Assembly: GCF_004010195.1 (NCBI RefSeq)
Contig: NW_025214440.1
Coordinates: forward strand, 1 to 43,908
Direction of reading: 5' to 3'
Length of the DNA: 43,908 nucleotides
From: Chiloscyllium plagiosum
Lineage: Eukaryota
The position numbers and the translations under genes were made by a program. Below, piece after piece: positions 1,684-35,290 of this stretch. A model generated the notes under the pieces. The model saw only the letters and a list, made by a program, of their open reading frames with translations, made no database searches and had not been told where the DNA came from. Position 1 is the first letter of the stretch; each line of letters opens with the position of its first letter.

Positions 1684-4600
1684 ATGGGGTTTAAAATTGC
1701 AACTATCAATGTGCGCAGCATAAAATCTGCTGCGTGATGTGTTTCAACACTGGCCTTCCTGGCCAACGTGAAAGCCGATGTCCTGTTTCTGCAGGAGTGT
1801 GGGACACCGCACCTCAGCAGTTACAGGAGATGGTCGAGCTTGTGGGCCCATGGGCCGTCAGTGTGGTCGGGGGTAACGATAACTGCTCCTCGGGCCTGGG
1901 TATTCTGTTACGGGGAGGCAACTTCACCATCTCCGAGGTTAAGGAAGTGGTGGGCAGGCGCCTCCTCGTCGCTGATGTTACATACAGAAACGCTCCCGTG
2001 AGACTAATCAACATGTACGCCCCAGCGGGTAAGAGTGAACGGTTGGCCGTAGGAATGCTCCCCTGAGACTGATTAATGTGTACGCCCTAGTGGGTAAGAG
2101 TGAAAGGTTGGCCGTCCTGCAGCACGCTTCCACTGTTGCTGGCTACGTCCAGGCCGGTCATTCTGGCCGGAGACTTCAACTGTATCATTGATGCAGATGA
2201 ACGATCCGGCGGGGGGAAACAGTAAACTGGACACCACGTCCAGAGCCCTGATAGACACGGTAAAAGATGCCAAGCTGCATGACGTCTTCAGCGCCCCTGC
2301 AGACGGAGCGCAGCGTAGATACACCTGGTCACGGGCAGACGGGTCTATCCGCTCAAGGATAGATTACCAGTTTGTGTCCCGAACGCTCCGCTCCAGATCC
2401 ACCGACGTCAAGCCGGTGTTCTTCTCTGACCACTGCCTCCTGCTGGCCGACTGTCACCGACAGGACGAGCAGTGGGCTGGTAAGGGAANNNNNNNNNNNN
2501 NNNNNNNNNNNNNNNNNNNNNNNNNNNNNNNNNNNNNNNNNNNNNNNNNNNNNNNNNNNNNNNNNNNNNNNNNNNNNNNNNNNNNNNNNNNNNNNNNNNN
2601 NNNNNNNNNNNNNNNNNNNNNNNNNNNNNNNNNNNNNNNNNNNNNNNNNNNGTGCTCATGTTTCTTCTTCCAGAAGGTGCACAAAGAGAGCTCTGTGCTC
2701 AGCAGCCTGAAGGAAGAAGATGGCTCGGTAACGTCATCTCAGGCTGATATCATGAGGTTCAGTGAATCCTTCTATGCCAGTCTGTATGACTCGAAGCCAA
2801 CCGACAATGTGGCCTCCAAGTCGTTCCTGTCCTCTATCACGGAGGTCCTAGACGACGGAACACGAGAGAGGCTGGACCAGCCGCTATCTCTGGATGAGCT
2901 GACCAAGGCCCTCGAGTCCTTCGAAAAGAATAAAACTCCCGGAAGCGACGGCTTACCGGTCGAGCTCTATTCTGCTCTTTGGGACTTGATTGGTCGGGAC
3001 CTGCTGGAGGTGTATGTCAGTATGCTTCAGGCAGGTACCATGAGTGGATCCATGAGGAAAGGCATCAATTGGAGACCGATCTCACTGTTAAACACAGACT
3101 ACAAAATCTTGTGAAAGGTCATCGCCAACCGGGTCAGGTCTGGTCTGGGATCGGTGATCCACCCTGACCAAACCTGGGCTGTACCGGGCAGGAAGATCGC
3201 TGAGAGTCTCGCACTCCTCAGAGAAACGATTGCCTACGTGCAGGACAGTGGGGTGGACACCTGTCTCATCAGCCTGGATCAGGAGAAAGCCTTTGACAGG
3301 ATATCGCATACAAAAATGAGGGATGTCCTCTCCAAAATGGGCTTCGGGGAGGGAATCGCTAATTGGATCAGACTGCTCTACACCAACATTGTCAATGCAG
3401 TCTCAATCAATGGGTGGGAATCAGATAGCTTCCCAGTCAGATCTGGAGTCAGGCAGGGCTGCCCTCTCTCTCCTGCCTTGTTTGTTGCTGCATAGAGCCA
3501 TTTGCCGACTCCATCAGGAAGGATGCGAGCCTGAGAGGGGTGACTATTCCTAGCAGCGGGGGTCTGCAGGTTAAGGTCTCCCTGTACATGGACGACGTCG
3601 CCGTTTTCTGCTTGGATCCGCTGTCCGTGCACAGACTCATGTGCATCTGTGTCCAGTTCGAACGGGTCTCGGGGGCAAAGGTAAACCGAGGCAAGAGCGA
3701 AGCCATGCTCTTCGGGAACAGGGCCGACCAATCCTCGATCCCCTTCACGGTCAGGACTGACCACCTGAAGGTGCTGGGTATTTGGTTCGGGGGGGCTGGG
3801 GCGTGCGCCAAGACCTGGGAGGAGCGGATCAGGAAGGTGAGACAGAAACTGGGCAAATGGAAGCAACGGTCTCTCTCCATCGCGGGTAAAAACCTGGTCA
3901 TCAGGTGTGAGGTACTCTCAGTATTGTTATACGTGGCACAGGTCTGGCCTATCCCCAGAACCTGTGCCGCCGCAGTCACCCGGGCCATCTTCCACTTTGT
4001 GTGGAGATCAAAGATGGACCGGGTCCGAAGAGATGTAATGTACAAAGGCCGGAGCAATGGGGGAAAAAACACACCTAATGCAACCCTCACCCTGATGGCC
4101 ACCTTTGTGTGTGGCTGCATCAAGCTGTGCGTGGATTCCCGGTACGCAAACACCAAGTGTCACTACGTACTGAGGTTCTACCTGTCCCCGGTGTTGCGAA
4201 GGATGGGCCTGGCCTCGCTGCCGCGGAACGCTCCGAATAGTTGGACCGTTCCGTACCACCTGTCCTTCGTGGAGAAATTTATCAAGAAAAACACCTTTGA
4301 CCACAAGTCCATCAGGAAGTGGTCAGCACGTAATGTCCTTGAGACCCTTCGGGAAAAGGAGAGGGCAGATCCTGTCGAGCGGTTCCCTGAGCAGACTGTC
4401 AAAGCCATTTGGCAGAATGCCTCATCGCCAGAACTTTCCAACAAGCACCAAGACATGGCTTGGCTGGTGGTGAGAAGGGCTCTGCCAGTGAGATCCTTTA
4501 TGCACACCCGGACTCTCAGCCGCACCGCACGCTGCCCTCAAAGCGGCTGCGGGGGGGACAGACGAACATCAACTGTGCCTGGAGGATCATCAACTCGGTG

Positions 4601-4771
4601 AAGGACGCTCTCTGGGTGGTCCAAAACCTGTTGATCTTCCAGCTGAAGGAGTTGACCCCGGCTGAGTGTTGCAGACTGGCACATTCCAAGGACCAGGACT
4701 ACGTGTTGAGGGACGCGCTGAAGCTTGGGGCAGCTGCCTCCAAGGCGCGGTGGGGAAAGACCACCGTCTAA
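1684..4771 (+). pseudogene. Tx1 ORF2 (APE endonuclease - RT - C-terminal domain), frameshifted
   Basis: MGFKIATINVRS, VLFLQE, NMYAP, SRIDY, FSDH (APE); KTPGSDGLP, WRPISLLNTDYK, SLDQEKAFD, GVRQGCPLSP, YMDD at 3585-3596 (RT). Stops, frameshifts, small deletions near 3066 and 4560, and an N-gap at 2489-2651. Confidence 0.9.
1986..2115 (+). repeat. Diverged 65-bp direct tandem duplication in the Tx1 endonuclease
   Basis: 1986-2050 vs 2051-2115; 10 mismatches in 65 nt by manual alignment. Confidence 0.9.
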
Positions 4772-5237: not shown

Positions 5238-5933
5238 CGAGGCAGGGTTCCTGCAGAGTGGAGAGATAAATGAGAGGGGGTGGAGGTGGGGAGAAAGTAG
5301 CATACAGTCCAACAGGTAAATGGGGGTGGGGATGGAGGTGATAGGTCAGGGATGAGGGTGGGAGAAAATAGCAAAGTGTCCATTGGGTGAATGGGGGGGA
5401 GGGGATGAAGGTGCTAGGTCAGAGGGGTGGGTGAAGTGGATAGGTGGAAAGAAAGATAGGCAGGTAGGACAGGTCATGGGGACGGTACTGAGCTGGAAGT
5501 TTGGAACTGGGGTGACGTGGGGGAAGGGGAAATGAGGAAGCTGGTGAAGTCCAAATTGAAGCCCTGGCGTTGAAGTGTTCTGAGGTGGAAGATGAGGTGT
5601 TCTTCCTCCAGGCTTCAGGTGGTGAGGGCGGGGCGGTGGAGGACGCCGAGAACCTGCAATGTCCTCGGCAGAGTGGGTAGGGGAGTGGAAAAGTTGGGCC
5701 ACAGGGCGGTGTGGTTGATTAGTGCAGGTGTCCTGGAGATGTTCCCTAAAACGCTCTGCTAGGAGGCGTCCAGTCTCCCCAATGTAGAGGAGACCGCTTC
5801 AGGAGCAACGTATGCAATAAATGATATTTGTGGATGTGCAGGTAAAATTTGATGGATTTGGAAGGTCCCTTTAGCGCCTTAGATGGAGGTGAGGGAGGAG
5901 GTTTGGGCGCAGCTGGCAGGGGAGGGTGCCAGG

Positions 5934-6003
5934 AAGGGAGGGTGAGTTGTTGGGGACGTGGACCTGACAAGGGAGGGTGAGTTGTTGGGGACGTGGACCT
6001 GAC
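5934..6003. repeat. Perfect 35-bp tandem duplication within the Penelope element
   Basis: aagggagggtgagttgttggggacgtggacctgac x2. Confidence 0.9.
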
Positions 6004-7889
6004 CAGGTAGTCACAGAGGGAACGGTCTTTGCGGAAAGTGGAAATGGCTGGGGAGGGAAATATATCCCTGGTGGTGAGGTCCATTTGGAGGTGGCGGAAA
6101 TGTCGTCGGATGATTTGCTTTATGTGAAGGTTGGTAGGGTGGAAGGTGAGCACCAGGGGCTTTCTGTCCTTTTTACGGCTGGAGCGATGGGGTTTGAGGG
6201 CGAAGGTGCGGGATGTGGATGAGATGCGTAGGCGGGCATCTTTAACCATGTGGGAAGGGAAACTGCGGTCTCTGAAGAAGGAGGCCATCTGGTGTGTTCT
6301 GGGGTGGAACTGGTCCTCCTGGGAGCAGATACGGTGGAGGCAGAGGAATTGGGAGTACTGGATGGCATTTTTGCAGCAGGTAGGGTGGGAAGAGGTGTAA
6401 TGCAGGTAGCTGTGGGATTCGTTAAAAAATGTCAGTGTCAAGTCAGTCATCATTAATGGAGATGGAAAGGTCCAGGAAGGCGAGGGAGGTGTCAGAGATG
6501 GTCCAGTTAAATTTAAGGTCGGGGTGGAATATGTTGGTGAAGTTGATGAATTGCTCAACATCCTCACGGGAGCACGAGGTGGCGCCGATGCCGTCATCAA
6601 TATAGTGGAGGAAGAGGTTGGGAGTGGTGCCGGTGTAACGACGGAAGATGGACTGTTCTACGGAGCCAACAAAGAGACAGGCATAGCTGGGGCCCTTATG
6701 GATGCCCATGGCTACACCTTTGGTCTGGAGGAAGTTGGAGGATTCGAAGGAGAAATTGTTAAGAGTGAGGACCAGTTCAGCCAAACGAATGAGAGTGTCA
6801 GTAGAAGGGTACTGATGGGGACGTCGGGAGAGGAAGAAAAGGAGGGCTTGGAAGCAGTGGTCATGGCGGATGGAGGTGTAGAGTGATTGGATATCCATGG
6901 TGAAGATGAGGTTTTGGGGGCTGGGGAAACGGAAGTCTTGGAGGAGGTGGAGTGCGTGGGTGGTGTCTCGAACATATGTGGGGAGTTTCTGGACGAGGGA
7001 GGATAGGACAGTGTCAAGGTCGGTATTGATGAGTTCGGTGGAGCTGGAGCATGCTGAGAAAATGGGTCAGCCAAGGTTGTCAGGCTTGTGGATCTTGGGA
7101 AGGAGGTAGAATCAGGCAGTGCGTAGTTCCCGGACTATGGGTTGCAAGCTGTGGGTGGGAGATCTCCTCCTGAGGCGATAAGTTTCTGTATGGTCTGGGA
7201 GATGATGGTTTGTTTTTGGGGGTGCGGTCATGGTAGAGGGGGCGGTAGGAGGAGGTGTCTTCGAGTTGGCATCATGGCTTCAGTAGTGCAGAGGTCAGTT
7301 TGCCAAACTACCACTGCACCCCCTTTATCTGCTGGTTTGGATTGGAGCTGAGGGAGTGAATGGCTGTGCGTTGTGAGGGTGAGAGGTTGGAGTGGTGGAA
7401 CGGGTTAGAAGGTTGAGTTGGATAATGTCTTGGCGGCAGTTGAAAATGAAAACATCGAGGGCCGGTAAAAAGCCAGCACGCAGTGGGTGGCGTGTGAAAT
7501 AGGAGGATGTCATTGATGCTGCAAAACGACAAACCAACGAAGTAGAGACTGCAAAGACAGATTGCTCCATGTTGTTCCTCCTAGCTCCCTTCGTAATGGT
7601 TCACGTGTGTTACATTAACGTGGTTTGCTGATGGTAAGGAGACACACCGGATGTTTGTGCGATGTCTCAAGGAAGCATCTTCCATCTCTGAGAAGATAGG
7701 CTAATCTTCTGCACGGTTCCAGAAGCTTTTGAGAATGGCCAACTCTATCAGAGTGTGGCTGCTGACAGGTTTGTGAACAACATGATGCTCAGTGCAGGGT
7801 CTCACTCCAACTGAACATTGAGACGTTGAGAGTTTTTCAGAAAGTGGAGCTCTCACTCAACCAACATGGAGGCTCCACAGAGATAGATA

Positions 7890-10311: not shown

Positions 10312-10320
10312 ACTTACCAG
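10312..10320 (-). other. 5' splice donor CTG|GTAAGT
   Basis: Plus strand acttaccag at 10312-10320; perfect +1 to +6 consensus. Confidence 0.8.
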
Positions 10321-10576
10321 GAACACCAACAATAGCGAGCATGGGATAGTAACCAGCCTGCATAATCAGCAGTACACCATATATCCGATCTGATAATATG
10401 TGCCAATACGAGGAAACACGGTAAAGACCCCAGGATAAACTCCTTTCCATTGTTCCTGCATTCCAGTCTATTTTTCTTAGAGTCTGAACCATCGCTGCGA
10501 CATTCCAGTTTACTGTTCTCAGATTCTGATCCATTGTTGGAACAGTCCAGTGTGTTGTTCTCAGATTATGATCCAT
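10318..10576 (-). CDS. First coding exon of a GPR139/GPR142-like class A GPCR (N-terminus + start of TM1)
   Basis: MDHNLRT...RIYGVLLIMQAGYYPMLAIVGVP ends exactly at a consensus donor (CTG|GTAAGT, phase 1, 259 nt). YYP.LA.VGVP matches the TM1 start of the GPR139-like family, normally continued by (V/A)N in the next exon. The start ATG is ambiguous. Confidence 0.75.
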
Positions 10577-10615
10577 TGTTGGAACATTCCAGTCTACGGT
10601 TCTCAGATTCTGATG
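10448..10615 (-). repeat. 4 x 42-bp (14-aa) tandem repeat at the GPCR N-terminus
   Basis: HQNLRTVDWNVPTM / DHNLRTTHWTVPTM / DQNLRTVNWNVAAM / VQTLRKIDWNAGTM; no indels. Confidence 0.9.
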
Positions 10616-10708
10616 TCTCCTCTCCCTGTCTCTGCAACAGCTGATCCCTGTTAGTGTTGGATGCGATGCATCCGCAGCTATAATGGGATAAATCATTACA
10701 AGACGCCC

Positions 10709-10718
10709 TTTAAATATA
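10709..10718 (-). promoter_or_regulatory. TATA-like box of the GPCR gene
   Basis: Minus strand TATATTTAAAGGG about 135 nt upstream of ATG 10576. Confidence 0.45.
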
Positions 10719-11205
10719 GAAGAGGAAAGACATCCAGTGACATAATTAAGATCCATGTAGACTGACATCAATCACAGTCACTGAACAAACAGATCCAGTT
10801 AACTCCTTTCAGTATGCTACCTTCAGTTCACAATAACAATTGGATTGAATTGAATGTTGAATCGCTGGCTAATGGTCACATCTGCCATCAGCAATTACTG
10901 TCGTGAAGTTAGTTGCGAGGGAGAATGATGGATGCTTTCCTATCGCAGGCTCGATGCTTCTGCTGTTTTGTCCATTTGCAAGAATGTAACTGCCTGAACA
11001 CTCCACCATGACCACCCAAAATAAACACAATCTAGATATTGTTAACATGCTGATTGCACCTCGATTAGAACAGGTTCCTTGCAACAGATTCTCAGTGGGC
11101 ATATTTGCCCTGACCATGCACAGGAAGTGCGGATTTGTCTGGACATTCCTCTCATTGCTCTAATAAGATAACTTTGAATCTTCAACACACAATCTTCAAC
11201 ACAAA

Positions 11206-13310
11206 GTAGGCTTCAAGGGAAGGGCGCAATTGATATGTGGAGCATGTTCAAGGAGCAACTATTGAGTGTACTTGATGACTATGTACCTGTCAGGCAGGGC
11301 GGAAAGAGTCGTGTGAGGGAGCCGTGGTTTAATAAGGAATTGGAATCCCTTGTCAAAGGGAAAAGGGCGGCCTATGTAAAGATGAGGCATGAAGGTTCAA
11401 TTGAGGCGATTGAGAGTTATAAGGTAGCCAGGAAGGATCTGAAGAGAGAGCTAAGAGCAGCAAGGAGGGGACATGAAAAGTCCTTAGTTGATAGGATTAG
11501 GGAAAACCCTAAGGCTTTCTATAGGTATGTCAGGAATAAAAGAATGACTAGGAGAGGAATAGGTCCAGTCAAGTCTGGTAGTGGGAAGTTGCGTGTGGAG
11601 GCTGAAGAGATTAGGGAGACACTGAATGACTACTTTTAGTCAGTATTCACTCAGGAACAGGACATTGTTGCCGATGTGAGTACTGAGTCACAATTAATTA
11701 GAATAGATGGCTTTGAGGTATGTAGGGAAGAGGTGTTGGAAATTCTGGAAAGGATGAAAATAGATGAGTCCCCTGGGCCTGATGGCATTTATCCTAGGGT
11801 TCTCTGGGAAGCAAGGGAGGAGATTGCAGAGCCATTGGCCTTGATTTTTATGTCCTTGTTGTCTAAAGGAATAGTGCCAGAAGACTTGAGGATAGCAAAT
11901 GTGGTTCCCTTGTTCAAGAAGGGGAGTAGGGATAACCCTAGTAACTATAGGCGGTGAGTCTCACTTCTGTTGTGGGCAAAGTCTTAGAAAGAATTCTAAG
12001 GGATAGGATTTATGACCATCTGGATAGTAATAATGTGATCAAGGATAGTCAGCATGGTTTTGTTAAGGGCAGGTCGTGCCTCACAAACCTTATTGAATTC
12101 TTTGAGAAGGTGACTAAGGAGGTGGACGAGAGTAAAGCGGTAGATGTGGTGTATATGGATTTTAGTAAAGCGTTTGATAAGGTTCCCCATGGTAGGCTAC
12201 TGCAAAAAATACGGAGGTATGGCATTGAGGGTGAGTTGGACGTTTGGATTAGGAATTGGCTGCCTGGAAGAAGACAGAGGGTAGTAGTTGATGGTAAAGG
12301 TTCATCCTGGAGTGCAGTTACGAGCGGTGTTCCGCAAGTATCTGATTTGGGACCATTGCTGTTTGTCATTTTTATGAATGACCTGGAGGAGGAGGGGCTA
12401 GAAGGTTGGGTGAGCAAGTTTGCGGATGATACGAAAGTCGGAGGAGTTGTTGACAGTGAGGAAGGATGTGGCAAGTTACAGCGGGATATAGATAAGCTGC
12501 GGAGCTAGGCAGAAAGGTGGCAAATGGTGTTCAATGTAGGTAAGCGTGAAGTGATTCACTTTGGTAAAAGTAACAAGAAGATGGGGTACTGGGTTAATGG
12601 TCGGATACTTAGTAGTGTGGATGAGCAGAGGGATCTTGGTGTCCATGTACACAGATCTCTGAATGTTGTCACCCAGGTAAATAGTGCTGTGAAGAAGGCA
12701 TATGGCGTACTGGCTTTTATTAGTAGAGGAATTGAGTTCTGGAGTCCTGAGGTCATGTTGCAGTTGTATACGACTCCGGTGCGGCCGCATCTGGAATATT
12801 GTGTTGAGTTTTGTTCGCGATACTATAGGAAGGACATGGAGGCACTGGAACGGTTGCAGAGGAGGTTTACCAGGATGTTGCCTGGTATGGTAGGAAGGTC
12901 GTATGAGGAAAGGCTGAGGCACTTGGGGCTGTTTTCATTGGAGAAAAGAAGGTTTAGGGGTGACTTGATAGTGGTGTACAAGATGATTAGGGATTTAGAT
13001 AGGGTTGACCATGAGAAGCTTTTTCCATGTATGGAGTCAGCTATTACGAGCGGTCATAGCTTTAAATTAAGGGGTGGTCGGTATATGACAGATGTTCGGG
13101 GTAGATTCTTTACTCAGCGAGTCGTGAGTTCATGGATTGCCCTTCCAGTAGCAGTGTGGACTCTCCCTCCTTATGGGCATTTAAATGGGCATTGGATAAG
13201 CATATGGAGGATAGTGGGCTAGTGTAGGTTCGGTGGGCTTGGTTCGGCGCAACATCGAGGGCCAAAAGGCCTGTACTGCGCTGTATTTTTCTATGTACTA
13301 TGTTCTATGT
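11206..13310 (+). mobile_element. Relatively young 5'-truncated CR1 LINE (ORF2 RT + 3' tail)
   Basis: [63 protein letters not shown]; few disruptions; ends in ctatgtactatgttctatgt tail. Confidence 0.95.
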
Positions 13311-14029: not shown

Positions 14030-17000
14030 GACTGGGGGCCCTTTGCAGTATTTAGAGAGCGAGTGGCAGGTGTTAGTGTCTCTTATTTCGTGTGTTGATT
14101 TGGTGAGCAAATAGAGCTTCAGATAGCAATGGTTCTTGCAGTAACCAAGCTTGTTTTGGAGGTGGAGGAAATGACCTTGGGTGTTTTACAAAATGCACAT
14201 AAGTCCAAGCCACGGGAATTAGTAGGCGAAGGGAGTTGAAGCTACCTCCTAATGTGAGGAAAGATGAGATGATTGCAGCAGTAACTCAGCATTCCAATTT
14301 GCTAGAAACTCCGTCAGGATCTGTAGAGGTGACTAATCTTCAATTGCAAATGAAGCAGCTTGAGTTAGAAGCAGAAATGAAGCAGTTTGAGCAACGACTA
14401 CCATCAGAAGAGGAAGAAAGAGAACGAATAGCTTTAGCAGAGGAAAACGAAAAAATAAGAAATAGCTTTAGCAGGAGAGAAAGAAAAGGGAGAGCATTTG
14501 TGCTTCAGAGATGGACACCTCGAGAAAGTGGCTAAACATTTTCAGTGGCCAGTGGCCAGTGACCATGTGGGTTTTGTTGACCCACACAAAACTTGTAGGT
14601 AGAGCTAGTGAGGTATTCGTAACACTATCAGAGGAGTGATCTGGAGTATATGAGGAGGAGACATGTGCAGATGAGCTTATGCCAGAAGCCTACAGACAAC
14701 ATTTCAGGAATCTAAGGAGGCATCCTGGTCAAATTCATGTTGAGTTTGAAAGGATCAAACAAAGTAATTTTGATAGATGGATAAGAGCTTTAAAAAGAGA
14801 GCAAACCTACGATGCTCTTCGAGAAACAATTAATTTGGAGGAGTTCAAAAATTCACTGCATGACAGTGCAAACCCATTTAGAAGAGCAAAGAGTTAAAAC
14901 GGCAAGGCTGGTAGCTGAAGTGGCTAATGATTATGACTAGTGATTAATGATTATAAAACTTGTTTTGGCTTCCAGAATCAATTTCAGTCCATGATGGATA
15001 GAAACTGGGGCAAAATAAAATCCTCAGAGAGAAAGGGAAAGGTAGATTTCGGTGAAGATCATAATGATAACTTTCCACAGGGCAAAAAGGAAATACTTGA
15101 AGGGGACAAAGAAGTTAAAAAGCTCTGGTGTTTCCATTGCAACAAATTAGGACACATGAAATCATTGTGTTGGTGGTTTCAGAAAAAGGAACAGACGCAG
15201 GAAAACGGGATAAGCCTGGGAGTTTCGTTGGAGTGGTAACAGAAAGCACAGTTGTGCTAGAAAGCTGCATCAGAGTGTACAAACTGATCGGAGGTTTGTA
15301 AAGGAGGAAGTGCCATATCTGCTTCGAAAATATACCTGCAAAGGGAAAGTTTATTCACATAGGCCAGGTAAAGAGGATACAATTTTAAGAGACTCGGCAT
15401 CCTCTCAAACTGTGATGCTGAAAAATGAGGAGTTATGTACTCCTGAAGAACTATTTCCAGAAAAGATACTGCTAAAGGCAATTCATCTTGAGACAAAAAG
15501 TGCAAAAGTTTGTAAAGCGAGGATAGCGTGTCCAGAAAAGTGTGGAGGAATTGTGGTAGGGGTATTGGACAAACTCTCAGCTCCAGGAATACAATTTGTC
15601 CTGACGAAAAAGATAGCTGATTTATAGATAGGAGTACTGTCAACTCTGGTTGAAAAGCCAGTGGAGACGCAGGCAACTGAAGCAATGCAGGAGTCTTATC
15701 CCAGAAACTTTCCTGATTGTGGGGTAACAAGGTCCCAGTGTCTCCAGTTGAAACAGGCAATATCAAAAATGTAAAGATAAGGAAGCTTAAGTGGCATTAA
15801 CAGAGACTTCGTTCCATCAGGTAGTTGAGACAAAACAGGAACAAGTAGGTGATCATGCAAATATTTTTAGTTCAGCTAAACCAATTGAGTTACAACAGAA
15901 AGATAAAAGCTTAAACTAGTTGTATCAAAAAGCATATATGTTAGGAATATTGAATGTATCCCTGAGTGTCATCACCTTAAAAATGATGTCCAGCTAAGGA
16001 AAGGGAGACTATCACATATTCAAGGAGATGTGAAATGTGAAGAGATTCATCAAATCGTTTTGCAAATGGGGTATAGAAAGGAGGTGATGCGAACCTTAAC
16101 TGAGCTACCAACTAGAAGTCATTTAGGAGTGAGGAAAACACAGGCTGAAATACAGAGACATTTTACTGGCCTGGACTGCAACAGGATGTAGTTGAATTTT
16201 ACCAGACATGTCATACATGTCAGGAAAATGGAAAAACACAAGCGATAATAAAATCTGCACATTTTTAAAACTATTCTGGCATTTGAGGAACCTTTTACAA
16301 GAGTCTTAATTGATTGGCTACGTTGCCGATCTCAAACAAAAAGTGGGCACCATTATTTGTTAACAATAATGGAGGCATCGACTAGGTTTCCAGAGGCCAC
16401 CCCAAGATGCCATAACACAGCTAAAAGAATTGCAAAGGAATTACTCTTTTAAAAAAAAATAGATACGGACCACCAATAGAGATACTGTGAGATCAAACTT
16501 CACATATAAATTATTGAATACAATGTCTTCAGAATAAAGCAATTCTAATCTAATGTGTATCATCCAAAATTGCCGGGAGCTAGAAAGGTGATATTAAACA
16601 TTATAGACCATGATGAGGGCTTATGATCAGGATTATCCAGATGATTACGGTAAGGAAGTCCCATTTTCGATTTTTGTGATCAGAGATACACCAAATTAAC
16701 AGAGCAAATTCGATCCATTTGACTTGGTGTTTGGGCCATTAAAATGGATTAAGGAGAAAGTAGTAAATCAGAATTCAAAGGTCATACTTTTGGACTATGT
16801 CTCAAATATTAGGGAACAATCAATAGCGTTAGGGAATTGGCTAGACAGCATTTAAAAATATTGCAGCATGCAATAAAACAGGAAACGGACAGGAAATTAA
16901 AAATTGGCAATTTTGCTATCGGGGATAAGGTATTACTGTTAGTTACAGTGATAGGTGAACCTTGAAAAGCAAGGCTTAGTGGACCATATAAAATAAAAAG

Positions 17001-18078
17001 GATATTGAGTAGGGGTAACTACTTGATAAGTACTCCAGACAGAAAGACATCTCACAATGTATGTAAAGTGAATATGCTCAAAATGTATTTTCACAGGGAA
17101 GGAAAGCAAGAGGAGAAGGTGTTAATGATTATGGCATTCCTTAAATAAAGTGGACAATGAGATAGTTGTCCAAAATTGGGATAAATGATTGAATCTTCTG
17201 AGAAAAATGGAAATGACCAGAAAGAGTTATTATTATTACATGGGGAGATAAGCAGGAATTAACTTGGAAGTACAAACCTAATTGTGCATAATGTAGCTTT
17301 AGGAGATGTTGTTATGATTAAGCAACATCCTTACAGGGATAATCTTCTGAAGCTGGCACAGGTTCAGAAGGGGATTGAATGCATGCTGTAAGATGACATA
17401 ATCAATGTGTGTTACAGTGACTGGAACTCACCCATAGTTATGGTGCCAAAGCCAAATTGTACCCAATAGTAATATGTGGACTATCGTAATGCCAGTGCCT
17501 TTAAAAACATTGGTGTATACCGAGTTCCATGGTTGGAAGACTGTGTTGAAAATGTGGGACAAGCAGCTTACATTTGGTATGAAAAACGTGCCGGCCACAT
17601 TTCAGCAGCTAACCAATAGGTTACCGGATTATCTAATGTTTGGTGTACATTGATGACCTGATGATTTTTAGTCAGTCATGGAAGGAATATATACAGCAAT
17701 TATTGGATTTGTTCGATTGACTTTGGAAGGAAGGCTGGGTGGTAAACCTAGCAAAAGTGAATTTGCTTTAAAACAAAGATGACCTTCCTGGGCCATGCTT
17801 TTGGACACAAATAAACGGTGTCATGGGATGTAAAAGTGAAGGTAATTGGGGAATTTCCCATACTGTTGACAAAAGGAACAGTACTATGGTTTCTGGAAAT
17901 GTGTAGATTTTATCGAAGGTTTGTGCCACATTTTCGCAATGGGATTGCTCCACTCACAGAATTGTTAAAGAAAGGCAAGAAGTTTCAGTGGGCAGAGGAC
18001 TGTCGAAAGGCATTTGACGGCATGAAATATGCATTAATCACTGCCCCACTATCAGCCACACGTGATTATGCAAAACCA

Positions 18079-18439
18079 TTCAAGGTGGCTTTAAATGCAA
18101 GTGCTATGGGTGTTGGTGCTGCACTCCTGCAGGAAAGCGACGAGAAGACAGAAAGACCAATTGTTTTTTTTTCTCCAAAAGTTGAATGTTCAATGTTAGA
18201 AATATTCAATAGATGAGAAAGTGACTGTGAGCTTTGTGTTGGCACTACAACATTTCAGTTTCAAGGTGGCTTTAAATGCAAGTGCTATGGGTGTCGGTGC
18301 TGCACTCCTGCAGGAAAGCGACGAGAAGACAGAAAGACCAATTGGTTTTTTTCTCCAAAAGTTGAATGTTCAATGTTAGAAATATTCAATAGATGAGAAA
18401 GTGACTGTGAGCTTTGTGTTGGCACTACAATATTTCAGT
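18079..18439 (+). repeat. Near-identical ~181-bp tandem duplication in RNase H of element A
   Basis: 18079-18259 vs 18260-18439, only a few differences. Confidence 0.9.
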
Positions 18440-19131: not shown

Positions 19132-20616
19132 TGTCACAAAGGTGTCCTCTTTGCAAGTTTATGTTGTTCTTGAATTGTTTTCAGAGATTGTCTAACCAAC
19201 CCAACGTTCCAACATGTCTCAATTTTGAATGCTTCATTGGGGTGCTTTGGTTTTACCTAACAAATAATACCTCTGGCAGAAGGCTTTCAAGTCTCCAACA
19301 AAAAAACTGGTATAATTAAGGGGACGTGGGCATCTCTCCCGCTGCACAGGTCATTTCAGTTCGAGGATTAGTTGAGTCAGGGTCACTGTTGAAACTGGAT
19401 GCTCTCCCCCTCCTTCAGCCCTCTGACTACGTAACATGTAAAATTTTTGAATGCAAGATTTACTCTTTGTGCTCAGGGGTTTGTTTATTGAGATTGTTGC
19501 AAGTAATTTGGAACAGCGTCATTAAGTTGTGCTCGCCTGTCAAGTTCGGATAGGATGAATTATTCAGGCATGATTCGGAGATGCCGGTGTTGGACTGGGG
19601 TGTACAAAGTTAAAAATCACACAACACCAGGTTATAGTCCAACAAGTTTAATTGGAAGCACACTAGCTTTNNNNNNNNNNNNNNNNNNNNNNNNNNNNNN
19701 NNNNNNNNNNNNNNNNNNNNNNNNNNNNNNNNNNNNNNNNNNNNNNNNNNNNNNNNNNNNNNNNNNNNNNNNNNNNNNNNNNNNNNNNNNNNNNNNNNNN
19801 NNNNNNNNNNNNNNNNNNNNNNNNNNNNNNNNNNNNNNNNNNNNNNNNNNNNNNNNNNNNNNNNNNNNNNNNNNNNNNNNNNNNNNNNNNNNNNNNNNNN
19901 NNNNNNNNNNNNNNNNNNNNNNNNNNNNNNNNNNNNNNNNNNNNNNNNNNNNNNNNNNNNNNNNNNNNNNNNNNNNNNNNNNNNNNNNNNNNNNNNNNNN
20001 NNNNNNNNNNNNNNNNNNNNNNNNNNNNNNNNNNNNNNNNNNNNNNNNNNNNNNNNNNNNNNNNNNNNNNNNNNNNNNNNNNNNNNNNNNNNNNNNNNNN
20101 NNNNNNNNNNNNNNNNNNNNNNNNNNNNNNNNNNNNNNNNNNNNNNNNNNNNNNNNNNNNNNNNNNNNNNNNNNNNNNNNNNNNNNNNNNNNNNNNNNNN
20201 NNNNNNNNNNNNNNNNNNNNNNNNNNNNNNNNNNNNNNNNNNNNNNNNNNNNNNNNNNNNNNNNNNNNNNNNNNNNNNNNNNNNNNNNNNNNNNNNNNNN
20301 NNNNNNNNNNNNNNNNNNNNNNNNNNNNNNNNNNNNNNNNNNNTCGCTCCGGAAGCTAATGTGCTTCCAATTAAACCTGTTGGACTATAACCTGGTGTTG
20401 TGTGATTTTTAACTTTATTCAGGTATTGTATTTTCAGTTCGTTGTGTTTCATTCTTTACTTTAGTAAATAAATTCTATTTGTTTAAAAGTCGGCAGTTGG
20501 CCCAGCTAATTCATTCTGGGATTATCCACTGTAAACTTAACTTCAACAGATAGCAACATTACGGTCTGGGCTACCTGCTTAAGAATGTTTTGAGGGGTCG
20601 GGCCTGGACCATAACA
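19132..20616 (+). repeat. 3' LTR of element A, interrupted by an insertion
   Basis: TGTCACAAA...CATAACA; colinear with the 5' LTR once 19569-20423 is removed. Confidence 0.9.
19569..20414. mobile_element. Penelope-family insertion with inverted terminal arms, interior in an assembly gap
   Basis: 19607-19669 is the near-exact reverse complement of 20352-20416; flanked by direct repeat TTATTCAGG (19560-19568, 20415-20423), which is single-copy in the 5' LTR. Confidence 0.75.
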
Positions 20617-21915: not shown

Positions 21916-23180
21916 AATATTGTGTGTTTGTTGCTGTCTAGTGAACAAGGAATGTTAGATTATACCCATCTCCTGGGTTCAAAACATCAACATCTTTCAT
22001 GATATTTGAGAGGTCTTACCTCTCCGTGGTTACCCTCTTGCTGTTAATGTGGTTGCACAATATCTTTGGATTATCCCTAACCTTTTCTGCCCATGCTATC
22101 TCATATCTCCCTTTTGCTTTCCTGATTTCTCTCTAAATAATGCCCCACACTCTTTATATTGATTAAGAGATTCCATTGAATGAAGTTTTCTACATCTAAA
22201 GTAAGATTTTCTTTGATTCTTGAATAAAACCTCAATGATTGTAGTTGTCCATTGTTTCTTAACCTTCCCAGCCTTACCCTTCACTCTAACAGGAATATAA
22301 TGCCGCTCAACTCTCATTGTTCGACTGTTGAATGCCTCCCACTTGACAGACATCGTCTTACCTGCCAATAGTCTACTCCCATGTAACTTGGAAAATCCAT
22401 GTTGCATGCCATTAAAATTTATGATACACCAATTTTAAAAAAAAGAAAGACTTATTCTTTTCCATAAACATTATGGAAATGATAGAGTTATGATTGCAAT
22501 ACCAAAATATTCCCTCACGTTTACTTCAGTCATTTGTCCGGCCTATTGCAATGATCTGGTTTTGCTCCTTCTCTATTAGGATCATCGACATATTGATGAA
22601 GAAAGTTTTCGTGAACACATTTGATAAATTCTTCACCATCCAACCCTTTAACACTGTGGTAGTCTCAATCAGTTTTTCAAAAATTAAAATCCCCGTTATT
22701 ACAACCTTATTGAGTTTGCATATATTCGAGATCTCCCTACATGTTTGTTTTTCAATTTTTTTCTTACTGTTGGAGAGCATATGGTACAATACCATCAACG
22801 TCACTTTATTTTCTTATTTTTAATTTCTACAAATATGTTTTCACTGGACGATTTGTCACAAACGAGCATTTAGTGCAATCTATTCATAGTGATCTTTACT
22901 TTATTATTTTTAATACTACCCACAAATTTTAACTGGATGATTTTTCAGAAATATCTTCCCCAATTACAGCAATAATTTATTCTTTATTCAAAACGGCAGC
23001 CCTCCCTCTCCCCACACACTACATGTCTTTTTCCATCCTTTCTATGACACTTAACATCTGGAATGTTGAATTGCCAGTCTTGAACATATCTCATGCGAAA
23101 ATGAGGACTGCAGATGCTGGAGATCAAGAGTGTGGTGCTGGAAAAGCACAGCAGGTCATGCAGCATCCGAGGAACAGGAA

Positions 23181-23212
23181 ATTCGATGTTTCAGGCAAAA
23201 GTCCTTCATCAG
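23181..23212 (-). ncRNA. Minimal hammerhead ribozyme motif
   Basis: CUGAUGA-AGGACUUUUGCCU-GAAAC-AUC: core intact, AUC triplet; stem I pairing is poor. Confidence 0.55.
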
Positions 23213-23219
23213 CCCATTT

Positions 23220-23250
23220 CTAATGAGGGGCTTTTGCCCGAAACTTCGGT
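23220..23250 (+). ncRNA. Mutated minimal hammerhead motif
   Basis: CUAAUGA-GGGGCUUUUGCCC-GAAAC-UUC: intact stem II but core G>A change; probably inactive. Confidence 0.5.
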
Positions 23251-24214
23251 TTTCCTGCTCCTCACATGCTGTCTGACCTGCTGTGCTTTCCCAGAACTAC
23301 ACTCTCGATTTGAACATCTCTCAAGCAACTTTCGGTAATAAATATGATGCCCCAATCCCATGTTCTTAATCATGGCCTGAGTTCATTGGAATTCCCTGTA
23401 ATACCCCTTACGTTGAAATAAATGAAATTTAGTGCTTCATAATTTCTACATACATTTGAATCTGTCCTCTTTCTTTTCTAGTTGACATGCCATCCTTACA
23501 TTCATAAACTTCGCAATTCATCCTACCATTTGCAATGCTACTTGTAATATCTCTCTTGTTGTCACTATCAATATAAAGTCTCCTACACAGACTGAGCAAA
23601 TCTCCCTGCTAAGATATTGGTTGCTTTCCTGTTTAGATTAGACCAATCATTTCTGATCAGGTCTTTTCTATTTTCAAATAGGTTCCAATCTCCCAAAAAT
23701 CTAAATCCTTCAACAGCACAGTAGCTCTTCAGCCATCGATTTTTCTCCTTTAACCTTTTGCTCCTCTTGGTTCAGTTTGGAATTGGGAGTAAACCAGAAA
23801 TTACAACTTTTAAGGTTTTATTTCTAATCTTCTAACTCAATTTTAAATTTACTCTGCACTGCTTTAATCTTTCCCTAAAAATATCATTCCTACCAATATG
23901 TACTATACCTTTTGACTGCTCAACCTCCCCTTTAACAATGTTGTTGAAATGTTTCGAGACGTTCTTAATCCTAGCACAGGGAAAGCAACAAACCATCCTA
24001 AATCTATGGTCACTGCCACAGAATCTCCTGTTGATGCCTCTGACAGAAGTGTGCACTGTAGCAATAATTCTACTAAATCTTCTCAAACGCTGCCGAACAT
24101 GAGAATTATTCCAAGTGTCCAAAAATTGATTAGTCTGCCATTTTCCTCAGAGAGACAATCCCCTTCAGTAGTTCTAAAAACTAAAAATCATTTTGATAGA
24201 GGAATAGCCACCGG

Positions 24215-26951: not shown

Positions 26952-27626
26952 AGGTTTAAACAAACCCAAACTGAGATCTGGGTAGATTTGAATAGATTTG
27001 AGGTATGAAGAAAGCACAGTATATTTAAACATTTGCATGTTAGTGTCTGAGATCTTTAAATAAAATGTCATGGAGACAAATTGTTTAATTTCGATAATTT
27101 GTAGTTGGTTAAATTAAAAGTGAGAGAAATGACTCTTAAAATTTTAAGAGAGATTTGAAGATGATTTTCAAATTTGTCAAGAAAGTTTAGAAAGAAAGAT
27201 AAAGGCCAAACTTTTTGAATTAGCAAAGAGCATAGTTTTGTGTTTAACCAAGGACAAGAGTAAAGCTGAAATTGTCAGACGTTACTCAAACACGAAGGTA
27301 TGTCAGAGAAACCGACAAGTGCAGTACAGTGAAAAAAACTTAAATTACAATGAAGGAAAATTGAGTTTAAAGATAAACAAATGGAGAGAGAAAGAGAGAG
27401 AGAAGAAACAGAAAGCAAAACAGAAGAGGGAGAGATATATAGAAAAGGGAAAGAGAAGGTTCGCAGCTGAGCAAAAAGAGAGCGAATTTGAACTTGAGAT
27501 GTTGCAATTTAGTCAGCAAAGTCAAGTTAACAGAATGGAGATTAAAAGGAATGATAGTGATACACAGAACTATGTTAAAACTCTGGCAAATTTTGATGAG
27601 AAAAATGTTGAAGCAGGAGAGATGAA

Positions 27627-27889
27627 GGGCGGCAAGGTGGCACAGTGGTTAGCACTACTGCCTCACACCGCCAGAGACCTGCGTTCAATTCCCACCTAAG
27701 TCGACTATCTGTGTGGTGTTTGCACATTCTTCTGCGTGGGTTTGCTCTAGTTTCCTCCACCGCCCAAAAACGTTTAGGTTAGGTGAATTGGCTGTGCTAA
27801 ATTGCCCATAGTGTTAGGTGTTTAGGGGAATGGGTTTGGGTGGATTTTGGGCCGAAGGGCCCGTTTCCACACTGTGCGTAATCTAATCT
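27627..27889 (+). mobile_element. HE1-type V-SINE inserted in gag of element B
   Basis: Homologous to 18451-18752 with internal deletions; taatctaatc tail. Confidence 0.9.
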
Positions 27890-28132
27890 TATTTCATTGA
27901 AAACTTGGCTAGGCAGACAGAATGGTCCAAGGATTTATGGGGAATGCTAGTTCGGTATAAACTGGTACGTAGGGTGAGTGAAGTATATTCTCCATTGTCA
28001 GATGAGGAGTTAAGAGATTCTGAAGACGGCAAGCAAGCTATTTCAAGTGCTCACAAATTGGTACCTGAAAAATATAGACAGCAGTACAGAAACATAAAGG
28101 AGGAACCACGTCAGACTTATGTTGTGTTTGAA

Positions 28133-28210
28133 AGAACTAAACATAGGCATTTTGATAGGTGGATGCTTGCTAGAACTAAACATAGGCATTTTGATAGGTG
28201 GATGCTTGCT
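28133..28210 (+). repeat. Perfect in-frame 39-bp tandem duplication in gag
   Basis: RTKHRHFDRWMLA x2. Confidence 0.95.
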
Positions 28211-31200
28211 TTAAAGATAGATACGACATATGAGGCTCTAATGGAGATTATTCTGCTGAACGTGTTGAAGAACTCACTTCCAGAGATGACAAGAGTTCAT
28301 GTGGAGGAATATAAAGTTCAGGAATTGAAAAGGGCAGGAGAATTAGCAGATGAATACATGTTGCTGCATAAGACAAACTTCCAGTCAGAATTTCGTCCTG
28401 TGAGGGATAGAATTTGCGAGAAGGGGAGATGCTACAGTACAAAGGAAAGAGTAGAGAATAAGAGTTTACCACAAGTTAAAGAAGATGCCCAAGAGAATGG
28501 AAAGGAGGTGAAAGGCCTCAGGTATTTTTACTGTCATAGAATGGGACACAGAAAATTTCAATGGTTTCAAAAGGGCACTGGTAAAATGTATTTTCACTGC
28601 CATAACATCGGATATGTAAGGTCACAGTGCTGGTCATTAAGAAAGGCAGTATGGGAGAAGATATGGTAAAATAAGTTAAGCCAGTGGCATTAGTGAAGGT
28701 ATTAAAGGAATCCCAACAAGGTCCGAAGAGCTGCAGGAAAGTGCACAGCCTAGGCAGGGGCTGGGTATGGAGTTAGTATCTGATCTCTATAAAGAACTCG
28801 CCTCTGTGAGTAAAGTTTACTCAGAAACAATAGAGGGAGAAGGAGAAGAAGTTATCATTTTGAGAGATACAAGATCTAACCAGTTTCTAATAGTAAGAGA
28901 TGAGCAAATTTGCAGTCTTCCTGATCTGTTACCCGAGAATGTCGTATTTTGTGGGATAGTTGGATAGAAATTTAGCTTTCCTCTACTTAAGATCAGGTTG
29001 GAGTGCCGACACAAATTTGGGGAAGTAACCATGGGAGTGACTGACAGAGTGTCAGTTCTAGGAATCCAGTTTGTTCTTGAGAATGGTTTAGCAGGGTCCA
29101 AATTGGAAGCGATACCCCTAGTTGTGGAGAATCCCAAGGAAGACCAAGAAACTGAGGATTTAAAACAGAAATATACTGGTATTTTCCCAGTAACCAGATC
29201 CCACTATCCTAAGTCACAGCAAGAAGCACAAACTATAGACAACGATGAAGGAGTTAAGGTTCAGTTAGCTGACATCCTGTTTGACGTAATGGTGCAGAGA
29301 AACCATGAACAAAGAGAGGGTCAGTCAAAGGTGTTTAGTCCTGAAAGGCGAAGGGATTGGCAACAGACAGGCAAGATAATAAAACATATATATATGCGGA
29401 TGCGTACTTTGAGAGTGAGGAGGAGATATTTCTGATGATTATTATCAGAAATATAGAATCCTATGACGGAAGTGGAGACTACGGCAGGTTAGTGCAGAGG
29501 AGTAATGTGCTGAAGTGTGCCAGATTATGTTGCCGGTAGCAAAGAGACAGGAAGTATTATGGGTAGCACGTGAACTAACTGTGGGAGGTCACCGAATGGT
29601 ACGAAAGACACAGGCGAAGGGACAAAAACATTTTTAATGACCTGGAATGCACAAAGATGTGGTTAACTTTTGGCATACGTGTCATACATGCCAAATGGTA
29701 GGGAGGCCACAGGCTGTAATGAAACTAGCACCTCTGTCGTGAATTCCCACATTCGAAGATCCCTCCTTTTGGGTTATAACTGAATGTGTACGTCTCCTCC
29801 TGAAAAGTAGAGGAGAGAAAGAATTGGAAAATCAGGTGTTAATTACTGCCCCAAAGAGTGAGGAATCAAATCCAAATGTTGTGAATTTTGACGTTCCTCA
29901 AAATATGTTAAAAAAAAGTATAAGTCCTTGAGCAGTGGGGTCGATTAGTAAACTATCTGTCTCAGGAGCATTGAACGCAGTTGAAAGGTTTGTTATTGCA
30001 GTATGAGGACATATGCAAGGATAATATGTGGAGGACTAATGCTATTATACATGAGGTAGACTTGCGAATACTGTTCCGATAAAACAACATCAATATCCTC
30101 TTAATCCTCTCAAAGCCAGACCGGTCCAGAAGGAGGTGGAGGTCATGCTAAATGAGGTCATTATCGAACCAAACCAGAGTGAGTGGAGCTCGCTGATCAT
30201 ATTAGTGCCCAAACCGGATGGGACTCAATGATTTTGGCTGGATTATTGGAAGGTCAACACTGTTGCAAAATCAGACATATCCAATACTGACATTGGAGGA
30301 CTGTACGGAGAAAGTTGGACAAGTCAGTTACATCAACAAGTTGGAGTTAATGCGTAGTTTCTGGCAGGTACCTTTATCAGAGATGGCGAAAGACGTTTCT
30401 GAATTCTAACGCCATATGGACTGTATCAATTAAAAGTGATGCCCTTTGGAATGACGAATACACCCAACCCATTCCAAAGACTCATGGACAGAATTGTGGT
30501 CTGATTAATAAACTGTGCAGTCCGTTTGGATGATGTAGTGATCTTTAGTTCGTTCTAGAAAGATCACTTGGTACAGTTGGCAGAGCCTTTTGAACGAATA
30601 CAAGAAACAAACCTGGTGATAAAATTAAACAAAACTGAATTCGCGAAAGCAGCCATAATGTTCTTGGGACAAAATATCGGTCATGGAAGGTTGACCCCAT
30701 GGAACGCAAAGTCAAAAGGTTTCGAGCAATTTCCACGACCAGCCTCGAAGAAAAAGGAACTTCCCTCCTTTGTAGTCAGCGGATTCTATCGGAAGTTTAT
30801 TCCAAACGTCAGCAGTGTAGTGGCACCGTTAACCGACTTGCTGAAGAAGAACACAAAGTTTTGGTTGACAGAACAGTGCAGAACAAGGCATTCGACCATT
30901 AAAAAGAAATATTGATCACCAAACCAGTTTCAGCTACACCAAACGCTTGAAAACCTTTCATAGTTGCTGTTGACGCGCGTGACATAGGAGTTGGAGCTGT
31001 ACTGCTACAGGCCAATGAGATGGAATCGTAGTTTTCAAAGAAATTCAACATCCACCAGAGAAAATAGTCCACGACTGAGAAAGAACTATTGAGTTTGGTA
31101 GTAGAGTTATGATATTTTAATGTGTACTCATAAACAGTGTGTTGGAGACGGTTGTGTACACGGATCCCAATCTGCTTACATTCTTTGAACACTTTAAAGA

Positions 31201-33899: not shown

Positions 33900-35290
33900 G
33901 CAGCAGCAGAAGCAGAATTAAATTCAAGCACAATCTGTAACATTTTTCCTGGGATAATCCCTCAGTCTACCATTCCAACCACGTTGATCTATGGTTCAGT
34001 GGTGTATAGGTGAACGTGCCACTGTCCCAATCGTGTGTACCTAAACCTGATGACAACCTGTGAAACTACCGTAATTGACCGCTTGCATTCCAAACAGCAG
34101 AACTAACATCTGATAGAGAGGGTGTAATGATCCTAACACCAACAAATCAACAGTACTTTCACTTCCAGCCATAAATGGTGATGGACGGTTAAACAATTTT
34201 ATGGAGGAGAGGTCTCCACTATTATCCCAATCCTAAATAATGGAACAGTCCTGTACATCAGTGTACAAGGATGATAAGGATGTCGTTTTGGCAAGATACT
34301 CCGCCAGACATGTTGAGTGGATAATCCACATCACCCTCGCCATGATGCCCACAGAGTCACAGATGCCCGTCTTCAATCAATTTAATTCACTGCAAGTAAC
34401 ATGAAGAAACAGGTGAACACAATAGCTACGACAAAGGCAATGGGCCGTGACACCATTCCTGTAATAGGACTGAAGACTTGTGCTGCACAACAAGCCGTGT
34501 CCCTGGGGAGGCTGTTTCATTCCAGCTCCAAGTAACATGAAGAAACAGGTGAACACAATAGCTACGACAAAGGCAATGGGCCGTGACACCATTCCTGTAA
34601 TAGGACTGAAGACTTGTGCTGCACAACAAGCCGTGTCCCTGGGGAGGCTGTTTCATTCCAGCTCCAACTCTGACATCTCCCTGGCAATGTGGAAAATTAC
34701 TCAGCTATGTCCTGTCCCCTTAGAGGAGAATAATTACAGTCTAACCATTTACCACCCCCTCAGTCCCATCANNNNNNNNNNNNNNNNNNNNNNNNNNNNN
34801 NNNNNNNNNNNNNNNNNNNNNNNNNNNNNNNNNNNNNNNNNNNNNNNNNNNNNNNNNNNNNNNNNNNNNNNNNNNNNNNNNNNNNNNNNNNNNNNNNNNN
34901 NNNNNNNNNNNNNNNNNNNNNNNNNNNNNNNNNNNNNNNNNNNNNNNNNNNNNNNNNNNNNNNNNNNNNNNNNNNNNNNNNNNNNNNNNNNNNNNNNNNN
35001 NNNNNNNNNNNNNNNNNNNNNNNNNNNNNNNNNNNNNNNNNNNNNNNNNNNNNNNNNNNNNNNNNNNNNNNNAAGCTGTTTCATTCCAGCTCCAACTCTG
35101 ACATCCTCTTGGCAATATGGAAAATTACTCAGCTACGTCCAGTCCCCTAAGAGGAGAATAGTTACAATCTGACCATTTACCACCCCCTCAATCCCATTAC
35201 GATTGTTAAACTGATGGAAGTTCTTTTGGACAGATCTGTCAAACAGCACAGAAATAACCGGCTCAGTGTGGTTTCCAACATGGTCCCTAC
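33900..35290 (+). mobile_element. Old CR1/L2-group LINE ORF2 fragment with duplications and an assembly gap
   Basis: TTKAMGRDTIPVIGLKTCA...LAMWKITQLCPV...IYHPLS (RT N-terminal motifs). Confidence 0.7.
34393..34664. repeat. Identical 136-bp tandem duplication; 34648-34770 recurs (diverged) at 35075-35198 across the gap
   Basis: Direct comparison of the copies. Confidence 0.9.

Follow-up and report, generated by a model that had tools for sequence, protein, structure and literature searches.

An N-terminal repeat of variable copy number in a shark GPR139-like receptor family, with start codons that look like passengers of duplication

Why would the first exon of a shark gene contain four in-frame start codons, each in a strong context and each 42 nucleotides from the next? 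The question is raised by a stretch of 43,908 nucleotides from Chiloscyllium plagiosum (contig NW_025214440.1), which is called the window below. An earlier note on this DNA had described a 42-bp repeat with an ATG in every unit and had proposed that repeat number or the choice of start could tune the length of a receptor ectodomain.

The array itself is readily confirmed. TRF run on the window reports a repeat at 10459-10614 with a period of 42, 3.7 copies, 81% matches, 0% indels and a score of 200, together with a weak period-21 signal (50% matches) in the same array. Aligned in register, the repeat consists of four 42-bp units on the minus strand of exon 1, from 10614 to 10447. Pairs of units share 30-35 of 42 nucleotides, and 25 of the 42 columns are invariant. 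The in-frame ATGs at 10576, 10534, 10492 and 10450 stand in the contexts ACAATGG, ACAATGG, GCGATGG and ACAATGG, respectively; each of the four units ends in ATGG, with a purine at -3 and a G at +4 throughout. The array contains no stops and the Trp is kept in 4/4 units, in agreement with the divergence by substitution only that had been described before.

In protein phase, the outermost unit opens with AGA-CAT (R-H) and not with ATG. The first ATG comes after this unit, so that translation from 10576 would cover just three units. The fourth ATG (10450) is the start of the unique MERSLS segment.

The repeat itself exceeds chance; its sub-features do not. When the same numbers of substitutions are placed at random under a uniform mutation model, all four ATGs are kept in 19% of the cases, ATG plus strong context in 7.5%, and the frame stays open in 51%. 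Between the units of the array, pN is about equal to pS. Taken together, these values give no clear sign of selection on starts or frame from the copy at the locus alone, and the selection on frame that had been thought plausible finds no support within this copy.

The layout of exon 1 and of the region upstream is given in Table 1. Exon 1 ends, as in the family, in a YYPxLAIVGVP-type motif (QAGYYPMLAIVGVP) followed by the phase-1 donor. Spliced paralogue models match up to the exon-1 end at 10318 only and then run on as GVP-VN. The family arrangement of 14-aa units followed by an M[DEG]RS segment of 44-46 aa is also found, with four units and 44 aa at the locus; this distance is 46 in 70/135 relatives and 44 in 13/135. 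Among the family N-termini fetched, the unique 44-codon part is best matched by P0168, P0078, P0082, P0138 and P0075, from zebra shark and whale shark. Translation from 10576 would give 86 residues to the exon end.

Upstream of the array, paralogous contigs peak over 10729-10826 and show loose ends at 10811 in all three contig runs. The upstream element corresponds to MDPNCVTG-like text in the gene models of other sharks. The TATA-like box coincides with S-I-N-K/E text of other sharks' models, and position 10713 differs in most paralogue contigs. The predicted RNA fold of 10440-10690 (minus strand) has a z of -2.24; close to the presumed 5' end it includes a small hairpin (about 10678-10658), whose bases vary among paralogues.

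Table 1. Features of exon 1 and its upstream region, by position in the window
Feature	Position	Strand	Basis
Upstream element common to many paralogues; candidate promoter or regulatory block	10729..10811	-	contig peak and loose ends
Putative TATA-like box (TATATTTAA)	10710..10718	-	sequence
Upstream in-frame ATG (GTAATGA); would be used only with a transcript start further upstream	10694..10696	-	sequence
Upstream ORF, 6 codons, weak context	10651..10671	-	sequence
Repeat unit 1, outermost, no own ATG, probably 5' UTR; ends in first in-frame ATG 10576	10573..10614	-	
Out-of-frame ORF, 8 codons, G at -3, overlaps first in-frame ATG	10561..10587	-	
Repeat unit 2; ends in ATG 10534	10531..10572	-	
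Repeat unit 3; ends in ATG 10492; out-of-frame ATG 10503 (8 codons)	10489..10530	-	
Repeat unit 4, most diverged; ends in ATG 10450; out-of-frame ATG 10461 (31 codons)	10447..10488	-	
Unique 44-codon part: hypervariable N-terminal segment and first part of TM1 (...QAGYYPMLAIVGVP)	10319..10450	-	
Phase-1 splice donor G/GTAAGT; exon 1 end = 10318	10312..10318	-	sequence and paralogue similarity

The surrounding window has N gaps and is rich in retroelement remains. One of these, inserted some 370 bp ahead of the upstream element, is a broken LINE with a reverse transcriptase (11178-13222, plus strand; RVT_1, E 2e-24), presumably of CR1/L2 type. The N-terminus of one family model, P0082, matches this LINE, which is an annotation artefact. 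The presumed intron holds two broken non-LTR elements, one with an endonuclease-RT-zf-RVT arrangement (2104-4601, plus strand) and one with an RT and a GIY-YIG-like ORF (5346-7134, minus strand); we take the latter to be Penelope-like. Decayed LTR-retrotransposon remains, which we assume to be Gmr1-like, are found at 14203-18216 and 27148-30915 on the plus strand (RNase H, E 3.5e-15; weak SCAN match, E 0.0016). There are also two-copy tandem duplications at 18079-18439, 28133-28210, 34393-34667 and 36617-36838 (180, 39, 136 and 111 bp, 97-100% identity), some of them perhaps assembly artefacts. An N gap at 19671-20343 (within 19606-20416) is flanked by inverted 64-bp copies (97%), and 23123-23309 is an imperfect palindrome (79%).

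Which gene does the exon belong to? The exon-1 peptide, compared with 1.84 billion representatives, gives 45 matches with a best E of 4e-56; ten of these were looked up, eight having shark names and two being nameless. Spliced relatives carry the 7tm_1 domain (PF00001), and so does the AlphaFold model of the paralogue P0111. The window ORF, in which TM1 is only partly encoded, has no Pfam match; with the 86-aa exon peptide, a word-seeded protein search yields nothing among 29 candidates and the Atlas no usable match. Based on the exon-1 matches to shark GPCR models and on the 7tm_1 domain of spliced relatives, the earlier proposal of a receptor N-terminus is supported.

The family is extensive. 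A full-length member matches 2,020 proteins at E<=1e-20 and a second query gives 2,000; the 120 listed of the 2,020 matches are all from sharks, mostly under the name 'probable GPCR 139', and the 'probable GPR139' names of shark models are automatic. In three public runs, 2,575, 2,630 and 2,132 contigs fall on a 1.45-kb stretch at an identity of at least 85%. Contig depths are not taken as copy numbers here; thousands of contigs per run on the exon-1 stretch indicate that the family is large within single genomes. One run matches both flanks of the array exactly, and none of its contigs listed spans the array. A quick tree of 126 cores shows lineage-specific expansions, with strong support for a 19-row carpet-shark clade.

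Human GPR139 is the best relative with a solved structure, both by profile (E 1.4e-15) and by fold, at 23-24% identity to P0111. For comparison, the zebrafish GPR139 orthologue is 70% identical to human GPR139 (PMC7318219), and the shark proteins are therefore only distantly GPR139-like and not its orthologues. That the locus itself holds a true orthologue was rejected on an identity measured on the relative P0111, as the window is without the receptor core. Our literature search, mostly of freely readable papers, brought up no description of the shark family or of its repeat; gene-family tables in supplements may list the family. This shark receptor family with an N-terminal repeat is apparently undescribed.

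To follow the repeat across the family, we use 197 fetched proteins, of which 163 could be anchored at the exon-1 end, giving 158 unique N-termini. The 34 dropped comprise 14 unrelated or fragmentary sequences, one model carrying a deletion and 19 models in which the motif of the exon-1 end is missing. The family consensus unit is M[DG][QR]NLRT-IDWNVTT, 14 aa in length. Unit number ranges from 0 to 10 among the 158 N-termini: 23 have no unit, 62 have one, 40 two, 21 three, eight four, two five, one eight and one ten. All family counts refer to top-ranked matches only, to predicted models with starts chosen by annotation and to related sequences that are not independent.

Variation in unit number among paralogues, which had been suggested as a possible means of diversification, is therefore clear from these counts and from close relatives: among 33 pairs whose cores are at least 90% identical, 20 have unequal numbers of units, most of these pairs coming from one Heptranchias cluster. 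Neighbouring units are 14 aa apart in 117/130 pairs, which means that copy number nearly always changes by whole units. Contigs tell the same story. Loose ends at 10572 and 10500 in three contig runs join post-repeat sequence directly to outer units, so paralogues with fewer units exist in the same genomes. The same loose ends show units of the Pro form to be common in the species from which the contigs matching the window derive.

Some models depart from the common unit. P0002 and P0149 (small-spotted catshark) have homogenised 13-aa units, and P0018 has an acidic, Pro-rich 13-aa unit. Of the 19 family models (within P0170-P0197) that have no exon-1 end motif, those inspected, from bamboo, whale and zebra shark, begin at or after exon 2; repeats are consequently under-annotated in databases.

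The repeat at the locus is also peculiar in its glycosylation sites. It had been remarked that there is no N-x-S/T sequon despite many Asn, and indeed none of the four units (0/4) contains one in the exon-1 frame. As a pointer to the nature of the repeat, however, this remark fails, since 198 of 265 family units carry a sequon. Proteins without any sequon number 0/33 among those with at least three units and 8/135 among those with at least one. With a sequon in so many family units, its absence at the locus is a derived local loss, stronger than in most relatives, and a glycan function cannot apply to this copy. Sequons are rarer in the carpet-shark clade (7/16 units vs 191/249 elsewhere, p=0.006), which includes the five best matches to exon 1 at the locus. 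The chance of zero sequons in three units is about 0.016 at the family rate and 0.18 at the clade rate.

In our judgement, the array is probably the N-terminal variable-number repeat of a shark GPR139-like class A GPCR, that is, a glycosylated spacer of variable length whose start codons are passengers and which is relaxed in this copy. The first codons of the gene would have been duplicated, the heptad (M-D-x-N-x-x-T) first and then the 14-codon unit, and whole units would have been gained and lost by unequal crossover or slippage. Along with the ATG, each copy receives the A of the Thr codon before it and the G of the Asp or Gly codon after it, and so has a strong Kozak context at no extra cost. 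A typical family unit would add one N-glycan site (N-V-T) and several Thr, resulting in a spacer of variable length ahead of TM1. Judging from class A receptors in general, this spacer probably aids folding, surface delivery and spacing. In the copy at the locus, the outermost unit would be 5' UTR, below the TATA-like box and the upstream element, with translation presumably mainly from 10576; its spacer would have lost the sequons under relaxed constraint. Internal ATGs would be at most backup starts where the outer one is lost.

Alternatively, the locus may hold a dead or orphan exon 1 of a birth-and-death family, with an array that is decaying. We consider this unlikely because the 150-codon open frame is intact, as are the TM1 motif and the consensus donor, and the upstream element is present. 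What such decay would explain is the similarity of pN and pS among units, a frame that would stay open by chance half the time, the loss of all sequons, and the absence of exon 2, by motif, hydrophobicity and tblastn scans, from the 10.3 kb downstream in the window, which contains retroelement remains. Indeed, tblastn of nine paralogues matches exon 1 only, bar the LINE-derived N-terminus of one model. Nonetheless, among the 19 models that have no exon-1 end motif, the first residues of those inspected come from exon 2 or beyond, and a distant exon 2 would therefore not be unusual in this family.

Next, we consider whether the start codons form a device or were simply carried along. Across the family units, Met is found in 197/265 slots (74%). 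With each column left out of detection in turn, retention is 0.73 for Met, 0.92 for Asn, 0.84 for Asp and 0.82 for the preceding Thr. From the retention of the Thr codon, 0.74 would be expected for a three-base codon such as that of Met, and 0.73-0.74 is observed. In this protein-level test on related sequences, internal start codons are not conserved above background. The majority of non-Met slots (59/68) are one base from ATG, and such a slot is present in 54/135 genes. Strong context, as judged from the flanking residues, accompanies 164/197 Met slots and 53/68 non-Met slots (Fisher p=0.36). Start choice as a means to tune ectodomain length is thus not supported: Met occurs at the expected rate and context is unrelated to it. 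As far as sequence comparison can tell, the ATG of each unit seems to have travelled along with the duplications and not to serve as a means of setting protein length. What speaks against this view is that 12 of the 33 relatives with at least three units, and the copy at the locus, retain all their Met codons in strong context.

The remaining case for start choice is a specific one, in which the unit serves as a translational cassette. Ribosomes would start at 10587, bypass the first in-frame start, translate 8 codons and reinitiate at 10534, 10492 or 10450, or else transcription starts would be staggered; either way the resulting N-termini would be 14 residues, and in typical paralogues one glycan, apart. 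Besides the four strong in-frame ATGs, this scheme can point to out-of-frame ATGs with a purine at -3 in three of the four units (10587, 10503 and 10461). An out-of-frame ATG with G at -3 sits 11 nt ahead of three of the in-frame ATGs, two of the out-of-frame ORFs are 8 codons long, and the one from 10587 ends 26, 68 and 110 nt ahead of the later in-frame ATGs. Since the outermost unit has no ATG of its own, this ORF overlaps the first start and could shift ribosomes to later ones. In the family, Asn followed by a G-initial codon is found in 206/265 units, which permits the same out-of-frame ATG when Asn is AAT, and the outermost unit is without Met in 24 of the 30 relatives with visible upstream sequence, a biased sample.

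We nevertheless regard this scheme as rather improbable, given that neither Met nor its context is kept above background. The codons for W-N-V and N-L-R generate the out-of-frame ATG and its stop as a side effect, possibly an incidental one, and in unit 2 the out-of-frame ATG has been lost. Moreover, a strong first AUG normally captures most ribosomes, which argues against leaky scanning, and the first in-frame AUG at 10576 stands in ACAATGG and so does not have the weak context of leaky-scanning genes. If start choice exists at all, the out-of-frame ATG at 10587 would be a better route to it than leaky scanning. A broader form of the idea, which we hold to be doubtful, makes the unit a dual-purpose cassette across the family: with every copy would come a further N-glycan site, a strong in-frame start and an overlapping upstream ORF of 8 codons, and copy number together with loss of the outermost ATG would set the amount of receptor and a ladder of isoforms one glycan apart. 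If true, this would add a second layer of diversity above gene duplication, in a family with chemosensor-like variability.

The heptads also invite a structural explanation, in which pairs of them build a helical or coiled-coil rod and Met is kept as a core residue and not as a start. In either heptad, positions 1 and 5 are indeed mostly hydrophobic (0.91/0.96 and 0.82/0.95), which gives a 4-3 spacing, and there are weak, sub-threshold Pfam matches to coiled-coil families. Such a rod is very unlikely, considering that Gly occurs in 48% of the A heptads and Pro in 9% of the B heptads (in 2/4 units at the locus), that a glycan site every 14 residues fits poorly, and that 13-residue units exist (P0002). 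The AlphaFold model of the P0111 repeat is one helix over residues 4-52 with a pLDDT of about 50, and AlphaFold commonly draws disordered stretches as long helices of low confidence; the single-sequence model of the window peptide, again one long helix, is uninformative.

Finally, with a more distant transcription start, translation could begin at ATG 10696, 10756 or 10768; all four units would then be internal, and their ATGs would not serve as starts. The frame is open upstream to 10768, and two isoform models of a basking-shark gene plus several ab initio models span the same region. This option is nevertheless highly improbable, because two of these ATGs precede the TATA-like box and the third follows it by about 15 nt, because out-of-frame ATGs are present at 10743, 10733 and 10671, and because 93/158 models begin in or just after the repeat.

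With these alternatives weighed, we return to the spacer with passenger starts. From the earlier interpretation, the receptor N-terminus and the copy-number variation among paralogues are retained, while selected start choice, the inference drawn from the missing sequons and selection on frame within the copy find no support, in view of the background rate of Met and context, the sequons of most family units and the near-equality of pN and pS, respectively. On our best reading, this is a family-wide, copy-number-variable N-terminal repeat in a shark receptor expansion, with passenger starts and with glycan sites lost in the copy at the locus.

Cartilaginous fishes are described as having few olfactory receptor genes, with a mean of 43.8 (PMC10869828), and a relative paucity of GPCRs (PMC8455134). 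Around 2,000 database proteins, lineage-specific expansions and variable extracellular parts (conservation of 0.60 in extracellular vs 0.84 in intracellular segments, with boundaries set by eye) form a pattern typical of receptor sets that diversify in ligand recognition. For a class A GPCR, it is unusual to have at the N-terminus a rapidly changing glyco-repeat in which the start codon itself lies. Annotation is affected as well, since the start site and the first exon are frequently called wrongly.

Closest to the locus are RefSeq models of shark 'probable G-protein coupled receptor 139' (XP_059502962.1, XP_048456482.1, XP_059505611.1 and XP_067832995.1), which show the same order of 14-aa units, M[DEG]RS..., YYPxLAIVGVP and intron, at 53-59% identity over the matched exon-1 stretch. 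The locus differs from them in its four sequon-free units, the outermost without ATG. Further away, GPR210A/B are orphan relatives of GPR139/142 in coelacanth, gar and fishes (PMC6504862). Judged by that description, this non-tetrapod branch near GPR139/142 is a candidate sister group of the shark family; the section on GPR210A/B in the same account mentions neither sharks nor repeats.

Like the shark genes, GPR139 has two exons (PMC7318219), and the residues of its agonist site are F3x33, H5x43, W6x48 and N7x38 (PMC5430874). Human GPR139 and its relative GPR142 are class A receptors activated by Trp and Phe. At these positions, mapped via alignments in 126 relatives, the shark family shares H5x43 (119/126) and W6x48 (126/126) with human GPR139, together with an NPxxY motif without Pro. 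It differs at 7x38, which is Phe in 113/126 and Asn in none, and at 3x33, which is Tyr in 92 and Phe in 30. Unlike GPR139, the shark family is multi-copy, has hypervariable extracellular parts and bears an N-terminal repeat.

For the repeat itself, the nearest parallels are the stalks of PSGL-1 and GPIb-alpha, which are O-glycosylated and internal, belong to single-pass proteins and vary in unit number among alleles. As in these stalks, copy number in the shark repeat changes by whole in-frame units within an extracellular and, by prediction, glycosylated spacer. In contrast to them, the shark repeat stands at the very start of a GPCR, holds the start codon, offers N-glycan sites and varies among paralogues.
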